From NCBI RefSeq assembly GCF_057098645.1, contig NZ_JBXSPU010000002.1: a stretch of 64,000 nt of DNA, one strand, 5' to 3'. The position numbers are program-made. The stretch comes from a plasmid. Position 1 is the stretch's first letter; every line of letters begins with the position of its first letter. Shown here piece after piece: positions 15,001 to 21,000 of this stretch.

Positions 15001-18000
15001 AACGGATCGCTTTCATCGATATGGATGGTGGCAATGTGGCGCTCCAGATTGTTCTTCATTAGATTATTTTCTTCGTGCAATTCATTGAACCAGTCTTGAA
15101 TTGCCTGCACTAGTTCGGGGTGCTTAACTGCATTGACCGTTCTGAATAAGGATGAAATGGCAATACTGACATCATCAAACCCTCTTATTACGGAACGATT
15201 ACGTGCCGTGAGAAATCGGTTAAAGTCTGGCGTGCCTGGGGTAATAGTTACTGTAGCCATGCCGTAATGTTCATTTTTACTTTGCACGACCCTACGGCTA
15301 TTATCGGACGCATGAGGGGAGCGGGTATTTACGTCAGGTACCTTATGCTCGCTTTCATTCATTGTTACATCGGTCATTGTGCCACCTCTGATTTTGAGTA
15401 TTGACGGACTTTTCGTCCCAGTTCGATATATGCAGCATGGTAGAACTCAAGTAATTCTCTGTAGGGTTCCAGTAATCCCTCCGTTTTTTCAATCATTTCA
15501 TATTCCCAGCTGGCATGATTAACAAAGCAGCTTTTCGTATATTTTCCACTTTTCATCGGTGAAATCCGTTTCGACATGTGACTAGGTGGCCTGTTTTTAT
15601 ACGGGCTAAACTGATGCCAGGTTATGGTGACTTTCCTGGCATTACCAATTAGCTCAACTTTTGGTGCATATGAACCCAGATACTCCTTCTTTAGAGTTTT
15701 GCTATCCCTGGGTAAATTCCTCTCAATGTGATTCCGTTCTTTCCACTCGATCCAATAATTGGTGATCAGTTCTTCAGCCTCTTCTCGAAGAACATCGATT
15801 TGTGAGCGCAATAAAGTACGTGAAATCTCCAATGACTTTAATAGCTTCGATTTAGACATGGGGCCTCCTGATGTGAAATCACTATACCGAAGTGATTTTC
15901 AATTTTTTTTCACGAACGGGACTTTTTTCTGTGAATTTTTTCGAGAATTTTGCATGGCAAATTTAAGAATGGAGGAAGCACTGAGAGTGAGTGACATCAG
16001 ATGTAAACGGGAACGGCCAAAAGGTCCGCATTTTATCGTGGAAGAAAAGTAACTTTTCCAGCAATGCTTATTGCTGAGATCGTGATCTGAAAAGAACTGT
16101 TTTACCTACTAAGTTATACATCTATCTAGTGCCACTTTTTAAAGGAAAGTGACCCTATGATTTTGACGCATAGTGCCACTTTTAAAAAAAGTGACCCTAT
16201 GTCGTGATTACATAGGGTCACTTTTCATCAAGAAGTGACCCTATGTCGATGGTGCATAGGGTCACTTTTCAGCAAAAAGTGACCCTATGTAGTAGTCATG
16301 TTAAACAATCGAAAAAATAATCATGCTTACGCGCATTTTTCCCTAAGGTTATTGCTACTTAATGCCGATAACGACTCAGGCTTTGAGGTTTTTTTATACG
16401 GTTCACATTTCGTTAGCAAGGTCAGGGTTTTTTGATAAAATTCTGGTTAGTTTGGTTAAAAAGTGTTACAAGTAAGGGTAATGGCTGAAAGGTTAGTTTT
16501 AAGGTTCAAAGCGGCAGTATTAAAATTCCAAAAGTTACTTTTCATCCTTCAGAATCCAGACCTTAATTTCATGTAGAAGATTCGTACAATTGTATTGGCG
16601 CAAGGACAATCCGCACATGTCAGAATCAGATAACATCACGCGTAATTTACTCGGTAAACTATTACGTACCGAGATTTCGATTATTCGTAGTTACCGTGCC
16701 TTCTTAATGTTATTGCCTCTTCATGGATCTTCTAAGTATCAAACTGGATCACCACTCCTCCAACGCCGACTATTTGGTAATGGATTTGGAGCTATGATTG
16801 ATAATGCATTTGAAGTTGAAACTCGGCCAGGAAGCTTCCTCGTTCCTCGTTCTTTAAGTAAAGAGATCTCTTGGGACAAATTCTTTGTAGCTGTAGTTGA
16901 TGGCGACACTAACGTCATTCGAGAATATGACAGTGAAGATACTGACTTCGGCATTTACAATGAAGGTGAAAAAGTAACTTTGCTCAGCGGGCAGGAGGAA
17001 TTTTATAATCCGAGAAAGATCCAGCAACTACGTTCTAAGTGTGTAGACATTCAAAATGATTACTTAATGCAAGTTTTCTTTATGTCAATGCTTGCACCTG
17101 AGTTTGTTAGTATCTTTTTTGGATTAAAACCTGCCACCGTTGAAGCAATAAAAGATGTCGGGATGTCATCACTTAAATTAATTAATGACATCGTTCTCTT
17201 TCCACGAACAATTCCCTTTACGCCAGGTCTGGGGGATGATAGTGCCACGCTAAAATCAAAGGTTTTTGCTTGGGCATACGAAATATCTGCCGATATTCGT
17301 TTGGGTAAAGTTAGTGACGATTTAATGGAATTACTGCGTTACGACACTATGTTTACATGCCACCGTCAGGATGTGTTCAATACTTTGGCAAATAAAGTGC
17401 TCTTGAAGGATTATTGAATATGGCTAAAGTCGATCAAACTAAAGCTAACATGTTATTGAGCGCTACAAAAACGATGTCTCTTGGTGCCAATAAAAACTCC
17501 ATAAGGATACTCTATGGAAATCATGTTGCCGAAAATATAGACTTCAGGTCTGAACCTCAACAAAACTTTAAAAAAGGGATTCGTGGGTGGAGTCGCCGCA
17601 CGGATAACCGCAGGGCTTTTTCTGCGGTTATTGATGTCGCTGTAAACTATTTCGGTTTTGATCCTATTCACCCGGAATCCAGTTTTCGAAATATTGACTT
17701 CAACCGCATCATGAGTGTGCTGCATAACCTTGGATATTTCGTCTGCGCTCCTGAGGTAAATAAAATCATTGAGATTCTAACGTCAATGAAAGAAATCGAG
17801 GAGCTTGAAACTTGTGCGAAATGTAAGCGCCCTTATATTGTCCCGTATACCAATGATACTCATTGTCCTCGATGCAGATTGTCGTCCACGTCATCGGCAA
17901 TAGCACGGTATTCCCAGGAAGAGTTAGATTAGCTGTTATTTTATGTGAGTGATTTAAGTAGAGGTCAAAATTCCCAGGGATGTTTCTTCGTTAACTACAA

Positions 18001-21000
18001 AATTTCTTTACTTACTTCACTGCAAAATAGACTACATGTTGCTGTTTTCTTCAGACAGCTTCCGGCCTAACGTAACTGAAACGATTATGCTAATATTATT
18101 TTCAACCGTAGTTGCTCATTACCCAGTCAATTCTGCCTAACTTTTCTCTGCATAAGTATGACTAACATGAAATGGCATTTTTTAGGTCAATACTGCATAT
18201 GATATAAACACATTAAACCGTTTTCTTGCCAAATAATATATCCTCAGTTTTTTTAATTTATCGAAAATTCCCGATTCGAAAATCAATCGAATGCGGCGCT
18301 CATCTAGAAATTTTTAAAAGTATCGTCTGGAATTGAATTCAGATTCAATTAACTATGCTGATAACTATTTTCCCACCTTTTTAGCTCCCATACCTTCCCT
18401 GCACACAGAAGTTCAACAGCCCTTTCAGGGTCTTTCTAGTAGTCACATTTATGACTTTTTAACGTTTGAAATCTACCCCGTTACCGAGCTCATGAAGTTT
18501 TTTTCTATGCCATCATACCTCTATTCCATGAGGAGATCGGTAAATGACTCGATTAACGTTAATACCTTCAAAGATGTTAGTGCTGCTGTCTTTGTTTATT
18601 ACTGGGGTCCATGCAAATGAAGAGCAGGCCCTTATCAAAGACACTCCCTTTGTATCAGGACAGGCCTTCAAGAAAGGCTTTTTCTGGTATGACGACCCGA
18701 CAAGGAAAACTGAGGAAGAAATTACAGAGACCAAGCCTCCTGTTGCATCTTCGACCCAGCCAGAACAAGAAGAAAAGATTGAGCTTAATTCAAAGTGGCT
18801 AAAGGACAATATGCCTCAGCTTTTGACTAAGGCTATGGATAATCCGACCCCTGAAAATTTATCGAGATTTTATACAGCACAACGTTTAATGCTGGATATC
18901 GGTACGCGGTTTTCGGATAAATCGAAAGATTATTTCCTTAAAAATCCAATGATGTCTGAAAAACGCAGGCAACCGGTTGAAAAGGTAGCGCTCGATGCAC
19001 ATCGTACGGTGGTCGAGAAAAATCAGCAGTCGGTTATGAAAGATATTTTCACTAAATCCGGGCTGTTTTTCTTTTTCCAGAGTACTTGTCAGTTCTGCCA
19101 CGAAGAAAGTCAAATACTCCAGTTTATGGAGAATTACTATTCTGTCGACATTCTTCCTGTCAGCATGGACGGCAGACCACTACAGAATGGGTTGTTCCAG
19201 GATTTCTCTGTACCTAATGCGCAGATTATTGATCAATTTAAAATCCGTGAAGTTCCAACTATTTTCCTTGTCTCAAAAGATGGGTCATCAGCGCAACGAA
19301 TAAGCGAAGGCATGATCACTGCTGAGGAGCTCAAGAATACTATTATTCTGGCTGCAAAAGGCATGAAGCTGATTGATGATGCCTCTTTCCAGTCCACTTT
19401 AGATATTAAGCGCCAATATACCATTGGCGAGGATGGCGTAATTACTGTGAATAAATCAGAAATGGACTCTGATCCGTTCTTATTGCAACGAATAATGGAT
19501 AAGAAACTTGAAGGGTACGATATGCCAACGGCGGACCCAGTGAACTATCTGAATGTGGGTGGAAGTTTAGGAGGTGCATATGCGCGCTGATTTCCATGTT
19601 TGTGCAAAAAAGTTACTTTTATCGTTAGCCGTTTGCACGGCGATGATTGCGCCAAATGCCGTTGCCGATAACGCCATGCGTAATATTTTCAATGGCATGA
19701 TGACGACTACGAGCCCAGCTAGTTTTGAAACGGCCACCCGTACCGGAGTGGTTGGCGGCTCATTTTCCTACCGCACGACAAACGTGAATACCAATTTAGT
19801 GTCAATGTCTTTTCCCAAAGCTTCCGTAGGCTGCAACGGAATCGATGTTTTCCTTGGTTCCTTCAGTATGATTAACGGAGATCAGCTGGTTCAGGTTGCT
19901 CGCGGTATTGCACAGGGGGCTGCAATTTATGCATTCAATGTCGCGGTATCGGCAATCTGTGCTGACTGTGCTGCGACTATTAACGATATCCAGAATAAAT
20001 TGCAGGCGCTGAATAAATTTGCCAAAGATTCATGCAACGCTACTTATTCGTTTCTTACTGAAAATGTTGGTCCACCTAGCCAGTTTGCGAATGCTGTCAG
20101 TTCCGGCCCTGCTTCAATGCTTGGCACTCTTAATGGACTGTTGCCTGATTTTGGTTCATCAATGACAAAGTCGCCGGAAACCGTGACTTCCCAGGTAAAA
20201 GCAAAAGACCCTGAAGAGTTTGCTGAAAAATTCAGTGGAAACCTTTTCTATATGTCATTTATGGACATCGATAAAGGGTCAATGAATATCGGTGGCGTGA
20301 CTGAGCTATCTGGCTACAGACTTGCTGAGCAGCTGATGTCGCTTGTCGGTACTGTAATTATCAACTGGGACGCTAAAGGTGAAAAAGCGGGGATGGAAGT
20401 TCGCCCGTCGACGATGACGGTATCGGATTTCATCATGGGCCCACCGGCTGGTGGTTCCATAAAAATGCTCAAATGTTCGCCTGCCCCCGATCCAGCTTCA
20501 GCTAGAAAGTCGCAATGCCTGGTTATGTCTGAAGTGACGGATGGTGGTTTCAAAGGTTTGAAGGATACAATCTCGGACCTCCTTATTCAGGTTCAGACAA
20601 AGGCAATTAGTGATGTCAGGATCTCTGATGATGAATTACGCATTATTTCTTATATTGGCATCCCAACTATTCTTGATTCACTTCAGACGTTTGATGTCCC
20701 TGAAGGCTACGCCTATATCCAGGATATCAGTGCGATAGCGGCCACCAGCCTTGTTATTAACATGCTTCGGCAAGTTGAAGCAAAGATCAGCGCTATGAAT
20801 ATACCCAGCGAATCTCTTTCCGGGCGGCGGCAGGACCTGACTAGGTTATCTGAAAACCTGACCAATCAGGTAAAAGCTGCCTATGAGCTAACCCGTAGCC
20901 AGGTGGGCAACAGCTCTGACGTCATTTCTGCATGGGATGATCGCCGATTAAAGAGAAAAGCGTTCATGGAAAGTCTTCGTGGCACAGGTAACTGAGGTCT

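Follow-up and report, generated by a model that had tools for sequence, protein, structure and literature searches.

The trhY-trhF intergenic region of IncHI1 plasmids probably carries a weak, activator-dependent promoter of the F transfer operon

Plasmids of the IncHI groups spread multidrug resistance in Salmonella Typhi and Escherichia coli, and their transfer works best at 22-30 °C. The DNA analyzed here, hereafter the window, is a stretch of 64,000 nucleotides from the plasmid contig NZ_JBXSPU010000002.1 (assembly GCF_057098645.1), and this work deals with the spacer that separates two of its transfer genes, trhY and trhF. Over about 1.8 kb around this spacer, the DNA matches plasmid R27 of Salmonella Typhi (NC_002305.1, IncHI1) with 100% identity, as it does more than 200 other IncHI1 plasmids. 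The spacer itself corresponds, with 100% identity, to R27 positions 110223-110833 (a window position is the R27 position minus 92290), having trhR-trhY on its upstream side and trhF-trhH-trhG downstream. The RefSeq gene order is mobI (= traH), the oriT region, trhR, a gene of 170 amino acids, the gap, a TraF-like thioredoxin-family gene, trhH and a TraG_N gene; Gibert et al. 2020 list the 170-amino-acid gene as trhY (R0124) and the TraF-like one as trhF (R0126) in their gene table (PMC7366339). The spacer is, then, the trhY-trhF intergenic region in the Tra1 transfer region of R27. The product of trhF reaches the curated thresholds of both TIGR02740 (354 bits) and Pfam TraF (2.9e-50), and TrhY shows a CxxC-N13-CxxC motif at residues 132-152, near its C-terminus; the identities given to both genes in a preliminary description of this DNA, a zinc-ribbon gene followed by traF, therefore hold. 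The stop codon of trhY (TAG) ends at 17932 and the ATG of trhF is at 18544, limits that coincide exactly with those of that description and give 611 bp instead of the 610 bp stated there. The features discussed below are listed in Table 1.

Regulation of the genes on both sides of the spacer has been studied in R27. Its transfer genes are arranged in six operons, three of them in Tra1 (R, F and H) and three in Tra2 (AC, Z and AN), with the R operon (trhR-trhY) regarded as distinct from the F operon (trhF-trhH-trhG) (PMC7366339). The F, H, AC and Z operons require TrhR together with TrhY, and HtdA acts against both proteins (PMC7366339). A lacZ reporter placed in the chromosome under the 'F operon promoter' depends on both TrhR and TrhY; HtdA represses it at 25 °C, and the arabinose-driven overexpression of trhRY brings about its strong induction at both 25 and 37 °C (PMC7366339). 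In microarray experiments trhF showed a 6.5-fold increase at 25 °C over 37 °C and a 27-fold increase in an htdA mutant; trhR, for its part, is reported to be silenced by H-NS at 37 °C (PMC7366339), and the same paper cites Forns 2005 for the repression of R27 conjugation at 37 °C by H-NS and Hha. The role of the spacer as promoter of the F operon is already published and is established knowledge, and this promoter serves as the standard reporter for the thermoregulated transfer circuit of IncHI plasmids; what the present computational analysis adds is that conservation is confined to the last ~100 bp, that these include an invariant extended -10 element, and that the F promoter has a box in common with those of H, AC and Z. 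Published work on the F promoter region includes Alonso et al. 2005 (Microbiology 151:3563) and Gibert et al. 2013, 2014, 2016 and 2020, and the first of these papers reportedly mapped where transcription of each of the six R27 operons starts.

The spacer has a guanine plus cytosine (GC) content of 35.4%, while the window has 46.8% and the flanking genes have 40-47%, and only 2.3% of the 611-bp segments of the window are as GC-poor. The top strand has a GC skew of -0.19 and a pyrimidine fraction of 0.57, values that are equalled in 0.16% and 1.1% of the segments, respectively. No open reading frame (ORF) of at least 100 amino acids touches the spacer, those fully inside it have at most 41 amino acids, and the NCBI Prokaryotic Genome Annotation Pipeline (PGAP) places no coding sequence in it in more than 400 plasmids with a matching region. 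The spacer had been described as AT-rich, ORF-poor and unusually long; the first two properties were confirmed, whereas the third was so only in part, the spacer being long but only the sixth-longest stretch of the window without ORFs of at least 100 amino acids. The oriT region nearby (15860-16589) exceeds it with 730 bp, and the upstream regions of the other R27 tra operons measure 350-760 bp.

A comparison was made of eight lineages, that is, R27 and seven further orthologous regions: the Citrobacter freundii/Enterobacter type (TrhY 98% identical to that of R27), a degenerate type represented by pTB222, IncHI2 (86%), a Photorhabdus plasmid (82%), two metagenomic or assembly lineages (67% and 59%), and the Klebsiella IncHI1B/HI3-like plasmids (~35%). 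A long spacer between trhY and trhF was present in every lineage, with lengths of 435, 591, 611, 615, 746 and 2173 bp, and in the HI3-like plasmids an ORF of 180 amino acids followed by 365 bp lies between the trhY-like gene and traF. The spacer of 2173 bp belongs to Photorhabdus tasmaniensis (JASNMP010000008.1; stretch L019, 3900-5500) and results from the insertion of an IS4-like transposase gene, of which 436 amino acids and a frameshifted remainder are found. With respect to the C. freundii type, trhR, trhY and trhF are 87-91% identical and the gap only 62%; this value drops from 67% in the first 170 bp to 53% in the middle 340 bp and rises to 85% in the last 103 bp. With IncHI2 and with Photorhabdus, the alignable part of the gap is reduced to the last ~100 bp. 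In the lineages without the IS4-like insertion, the gap has a GC content of 31-40% (45% in one HI3-like plasmid) and the flanks of 42-45%; in every one of these the pyrimidine fraction of the top strand is 0.54-0.58, and the GC skew ranges between lineages from -0.20 to +0.02. As far as the aligned lineages reveal, the distal ~500 bp are constrained in composition and not in sequence.

Within the conserved end of the spacer, 8 of the 8 lineages show a block formed by a T-tract, the sequence TATG, a dinucleotide (CC or GG or TC) and the sequence A-Y-N-A-T, located 25-27 nt 5' of the start codon. The form TTTTTTnTATG(CC/GG)AT(C/G)ATA is kept even in the Klebsiella plasmids, whose TrhY is merely 35% identical. 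When the block is written as TGnNAnnAT, the TG, A-11, A-8 and T-7 are invariant in the eight lineages and positions 1, 3 and 4 of the hexamer vary; the hexamer reads CATCAT in six lineages, CATAAT in Photorhabdus, CACAAT in the 59% lineage and GATGAT in the HI3-like plasmids. The block shows the features of a sigma-70 extended -10 sequence, namely TG at -15/-14, one base, and a hexamer with A2 and T6, and its pattern of constraint fits better with what is expected of a functional -10 than with an RNA or a peptide element. From this element, transcription of the F operon is predicted to start near A18523, which would leave a leader of ~21 nt that includes the Shine-Dalgarno sequence. The earlier claim that the spacer carries the traF-traH-traG promoter is thus borne out by the published F-promoter fusion (PMC7366339) together with this conserved core in the last ~70 bp. 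A TTGACA-like -35 sequence was not found at 16-18 bp from the F -10, where the DNA reads GCTCAT or CTCATG; because the -35 is absent, the site scores only 1.5 bits as a stand-alone sigma-70 promoter with a position weight matrix (PWM). The best plus-strand PWM site in the whole gap reaches 8.2 bits, less than the average for shuffled sequences (10.2 ± 1.4). A core without -35, placed in a gap depleted of consensus promoters, agrees with the reports of an expression that is very low at the basal level and depends strongly on activators.

Table 1. Position of the genes and of the observed or predicted elements around the trhY-trhF spacer, in window coordinates.
Feature	Positions	Strand	Remarks
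trhR	16617-17417	+	R27 coding sequence 108907-109707; name trhR taken from another record; first gene of the R operon
trhY	17420-17932	+	170 amino acids; CxxC-N13-CxxC; the "zinc-ribbon gene"; second activator
Spacer, F-operon regulatory region	17933-18543	+	611 bp
Fast-evolving distal part	17933-18440		Variable length; no conserved ORF or RNA structure; low GC content and pyrimidine-rich top strand kept
Predicted curvature peak	18160-18190		25 degrees per helical turn at 18183; window maximum 25.6
Exact H-NS consensus TCGATAAATT	18255-18264	-	In the spacer
C-rich, G-poor stretch, candidate rut-like Rho-loading segment	18331-18450	+	C/G 2.7-3.1; putative role
CCCGTT box, candidate TrhR/TrhY-responsive element	18477-18482	+	About -46 to -41; 28 bp 5' of the -10
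ORF of 42 amino acids, AAF69963.1	18492-18620	+	Original R27 annotation; out of frame over the trhF start; sole protein ever annotated here
Extended -10, TGC CATCAT (TGCCATCAT)	18508-18516	+	TG 18508-18509; hexamer 18511-18516
trhF Shine-Dalgarno sequence, GAGGAG	18530-18535	+	Can pair with CGAGCUC (18485-18491) if this is transcribed
trhF	18544-19590	+	TraF-like pilus assembly protein; first gene of the F operon
trhH	19580-20995	+	F operon
trhG	21004-24993	+	F operon

Given that F, H, AC and Z are the operons that require TrhR and TrhY, their promoters were aligned on the -10 hexamers, which are CATCAT in F, TATAGT in H, TATTAT in AC and TATAAA in Z. The hexamers of H, AC and Z are unambiguous and conserved in other lineages, and that of F had been assigned from conservation before the four promoters were compared. 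In 4 of the 4 R27 promoters the trinucleotide GTT is located exactly 28 bp 5' of the hexamer, as part of the sequence CCCGTT in F, H and Z, and of GTGGTT in AC. A run of three columns identical in the four promoters between -62 and -30 was obtained in 1 of 20000 shuffles. The box is kept in the orthologous promoters of other lineages, with a spacing of 26-30 bp and some base changes. We infer that the CCCGTT box is a candidate site for the activator, although the element is short. The H promoter is located at 15863-15925 (minus strand), and those of AC and Z at 38040-38125 and 19880-19930 (minus strand, R27 stretch L011); in H and AC, A-tracts are found 5' of the box.

Taken together, these observations make it probable that the spacer regulates the F operon in cis and that its last ~70-100 bp act as a weak, activator-dependent sigma-70 promoter. 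The extended -10 would direct initiation near 18523, and TrhR and TrhY, encoded directly upstream, would switch this promoter on; the dependence on both proteins would arise because the -35 is missing. They may act through the CCCGTT box and through the T-tract between the box and the -10, in a manner that would resemble the class II activation exerted by FlhDC-type heteromers (SetCD, AcaCD) at the traF promoters of SXT and IncA/C elements. HtdA counteracts TrhR and TrhY. Temperature would operate mainly by limiting the supply of TrhR/TrhY, since at 37 °C H-NS silences trhR. As for the distal ~500 bp, they are most likely an AT-rich, curved and untranslated buffer, which may bind H-NS/Hha. An intrinsic terminator after trhY was not found with a simple promoter/terminator scan, though R and F are described as separate operons. 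The distal RNA, with more C than G and unstructured, may allow Rho to stop the read-through from trhY, in which case F would rely on its own promoter. Given that an untranslated, C-rich, G-poor and unstructured RNA has the properties of a Rho-loading region, the spacer may shield F from transcription that continues out of the R operon, perhaps with H-NS taking part. At the start of the C-rich segment, a perfect 8-bp inverted repeat, AATTGAAT-N4-ATTCAATT, is present at 18331-18350 and spans an EcoRI site; it overlaps the top-scoring, unconserved sigma-70-like site of the gap, and it is not conserved in the C. freundii-type and pTB222 lineages.

Several observations weigh against this interpretation. 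The -10 and the start of F are predicted from the sequence, and a better-scoring, poorly conserved promoter-like site (TTGAAT-15-TATGCT) exists ~190 nt 5' of the ATG. The box varies in the IncHI2 and HI3-like lineages (GCT or CTT, with the spacing of 26-30 bp); in an unbiased search, the best 12-mers shared by the regions upstream of F, H, AC, Z and AN scored no higher than those of shuffled sequences and were mostly T-tracts; and the bare CCCGTT hexamer occurs at chance frequency across the plasmid. Even the pattern that combines the box with a -10 gives ~34 matches in 110 kb and is not specific by itself. Neither the excess of C over G nor the H-NS motif is uniformly conserved between lineages. 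The model obtained for TrhR is poor (predicted local distance difference test, pLDDT, 62) and has no match to the FlhD fold, and we know of no report of DNA binding by TrhR/TrhY.

A different explanation for the thermoregulation is that the spacer itself is the thermosensor, so that at 37 °C a filament of H-NS/Hha, nucleated on this AT-rich, curved DNA and bridging the sites at 18255 and 18856, would occlude the F promoter, and its loss at 25 °C would turn the operon on. The preliminary description had proposed an H-NS-mediated, possibly temperature-dependent silencing at this place, and part of the proposal stands. The spacer is AT-rich (GC 35%), its mean predicted curvature is in the top 3.3%, and the curvature prediction that had been suggested as a check yielded a peak at 18183 that is close to the window maximum. 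The high-affinity consensus of H-NS, TCGATAAATT (PMC2094087), occurs once in the spacer as an exact copy; a second exact copy is located inside trhF at 18856-18865, 600 bp downstream, and has one mismatch in the C. freundii type. These two copies are the only ones in the 64-kb window, where 0.27 are expected, and they flank the start of trhF at -285 and +316; in addition, four sites with two or fewer mismatches are found in the gap, compared with ~0.9 expected from the window average. The repressive effect of H-NS and Hha on R27 conjugation at 37 °C (PMC7366339, citing Forns 2005) points in the same direction. In contrast, the exact sites are absent from the IncHI2, HI3-like and C. freundii-type plasmids, which share the thermosensitive regulators; the curvature values come from our own implementation of the wedge model, a script with the parameters of Bolshoy 1991; and the published effect of H-NS is on trhR (PMC7366339). 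Moreover, the F promoter is robustly active at 37 °C when TrhR/TrhY are overexpressed (PMC7366339); therefore, any block exerted by H-NS is not dominant, and direct silencing of the spacer is unnecessary to explain the thermoregulation. A thermosensor located in the spacer thus seems doubtful to us, and direct silencing by H-NS at this place is plausible, judging by the sequence, as an auxiliary layer at most.

Three further explanations were considered. The F transcript could have a long leader if the real promoter were the site ~190 nt 5' of the ATG (-10 TATGCT at 18354-18359), in which case the last 100 bp would be an element of the 5' untranslated region that controls translation or stability, for example by CGAGCUC/GAGAUCG pairing over the Shine-Dalgarno sequence. 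That site has the top plus-strand sigma-70 score of the gap, and promoter-like matches occur at a similar distance in two related lineages, but its 8.2 bits are below the shuffle mean and it cannot be aligned beyond the IncHI1-like lineages. Likewise, the RNA from 18455 to 18575 folds better than shuffled sequences (z -2.5) and the anti-Shine-Dalgarno pairing is present in four lineages, but without covariation; this fold matters only if transcription starts further upstream, and the proximal invariance (TG, A-11, T-7) suits a -10 element better than an RNA element, so that we regard a long leader as unlikely. A decayed remnant of the gene that still occupies this position in distant relatives, the 180-amino-acid ORF of the Klebsiella IncHI1B/HI3-like plasmids, would agree with the synteny of these plasmids (trhR-like, trhY-like, ORF180, the gap of 365 bp and traF). 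Nonetheless, a tblastn search with ORF180 against the gaps of R27, IncHI2, the C. freundii type and pTB222 gave nothing better than an E value of 0.2, blastn was negative, and the pyrimidine-rich top strand is opposite to the usual bias of coding strands; no counterpart or relic of this gene was found in the IncHI1 or IncHI2 plasmids compared, and this origin of the spacer appears very unlikely. The gene itself (stretches L008, 3530-4072, and L009, 3536-4078) is without a Pfam match. The least credible possibility, to which we assign hardly any weight, is that the spacer encodes a small RNA, as had also been proposed, or a small protein. A 42-amino-acid ORF was included in the original R27 annotation, several ORFs of 34-41 amino acids are present, and a promoter-like match is found on the minus strand (18264-18235). 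The small RNA did not survive the analysis: a scan of 15000-21000 against Rfam at a permissive threshold returned only chance-level eukaryotic or viral matches located outside the gap, a simple promoter/terminator scan gave counts at the level of shuffled sequences, no conserved promoter-terminator pair or conserved terminator was detected, and sliding 100-nt folds had z-scores of zero or above almost throughout the gap on both strands (up to +2.3), from which it follows that the RNA would be less structured than random sequence. The middle 340 bp, with their 53% identity as against 87-91% in the flanks, also argue against it. The sole terminator-like hairpin of the gap (18419-18431) was discarded, since it is not conserved. 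With regard to proteins, frame-breaking indels and 53-67% identity separate the gap from that of a close lineage, an exact look-up in a collection of 15 billion proteins found none of the gap ORFs except that of 42 amino acids, and a reading frame opened by the in-frame ATG of the conserved block ends after only 2-3 codons in the IncHI2 and HI3-like plasmids. The 42-amino-acid ORF was judged spurious, given that its start codon is missing in relatives.

Other sequences related to the box were found outside the four promoters. A fifth member had been considered upstream of htdA (CCCGTT-N5-TTCATT-N16-TATAGG) and was dropped because a close lineage does not keep its -10 and IncHI2 has a deletion of the site; at this place (L011 17745-17795, minus strand, ~277 nt 5' of htdA) the sequence CCCGTTTACTGTTCATT-N16-TATAGG closely resembles the Z promoter (CCCGTTTAATGTTGACC...). 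In the window, CCCGTT-N28-TATAAT is present at 25930-25975 (plus strand), inside the 3' end of a lytic transglycosylase gene encoded on the minus strand; it points to a thioredoxin-fold gene ~590 bp downstream and may be due to chance. In the Tra2 region of R27, the upstream region of trhA (L011 38039-38730, 692 bp) matches five places in R27, and only seven plasmid records carry it with an identity of 99% or more; it therefore contains repeats and varies among IncHI1 plasmids.

The two activators could be placed in a wider context from the predicted structure of TrhY, for which the best match was FlhC. The CxxC-N13-CxxC motif of TrhY is reminiscent of the zinc site of FlhC, and this protein is the prototype for SetC and AcaC, which act as activators in the related SXT and IncA/C elements. 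At the sequence level, TrhY and TrhR gave no match in Pfam, NCBIfam or PDB, and no similarity between TrhY and FlhC was detectable; the TrhY family is tiny, since a full HMMER profile search retrieved 27 matches among 1.84 billion representatives, all of the same narrow family. The literature searched makes no mention of TrhY in connection with FlhC, or of TrhR in connection with AcaCD, SetCD or FlhDC. Membership of TrhR/TrhY in the FlhDC/SetCD/AcaCD family of activators is only half supported by these data. We put forward, tentatively and as a possibility that falls somewhat short of even chances, that TrhY is a zinc-ribbon protein with the FlhC fold and that TrhR/TrhY are the IncHI counterpart of SetCD/AcaCD, acting in a class II-like manner at F, H, AC and Z through a (C/G)(C/T)(C/G)GTT box 28 bp 5' of the -10. 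An extended -10 without -35, a box at a fixed spacing and the FlhC-like fold of TrhY could make the mode of action of TrhR/TrhY directly testable.

Two groups of known systems are relevant for the F promoter. It resembles the H-NS-silenced regions of the proU/bgl type (Lang et al. 2007) in being AT-rich, in its predicted curvature and in having exact H-NS sites on both sides of the start codon; unlike them, the R27 sites are unconserved in sister plasmids, and repression is overridden when the activators are supplied (PMC7366339). The other group is formed by the traF promoters controlled by AcaCD and SetCD (mpf3 operon; IncA/C plasmids and SXT/R391 integrative and conjugative elements), which drive a homologous operon (traF-traH-traG) in related MOBH/MPF-F elements. 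The IncA/C PtraF is silent without AcaCD, its AcaCD site has a class II geometry, and it has a weak -10 and no recognisable -35 (PMC4207636, PMC4542580). Some differences are evident: TrhR, with 266 amino acids, is much larger than FlhD and has no match to its fold, and the R27 box differs from both published motifs, which also differ from each other. In common with these promoters, that of F in R27 is inactive without a two-subunit activator encoded by the plasmid, the predicted fold of TrhY matches best that of FlhC, the prototype of AcaC and SetC, and, as in the IncA/C PtraF, the -10 is poor, the -35 is not recognisable and the candidate activator site would lie next to or over the -35 (PMC4207636, PMC4542580). 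By analogy, the F promoter of R27 looks like the same solution as the traF promoter of IncA/C plasmids; if TrhR/TrhY are indeed the counterpart of AcaCD and SetCD, the regulation of transfer would be unified across the MOBH/MPF-F group, and the box would provide a sequence tag for the genes controlled by TrhR/TrhY and for hitch-hiking islands.

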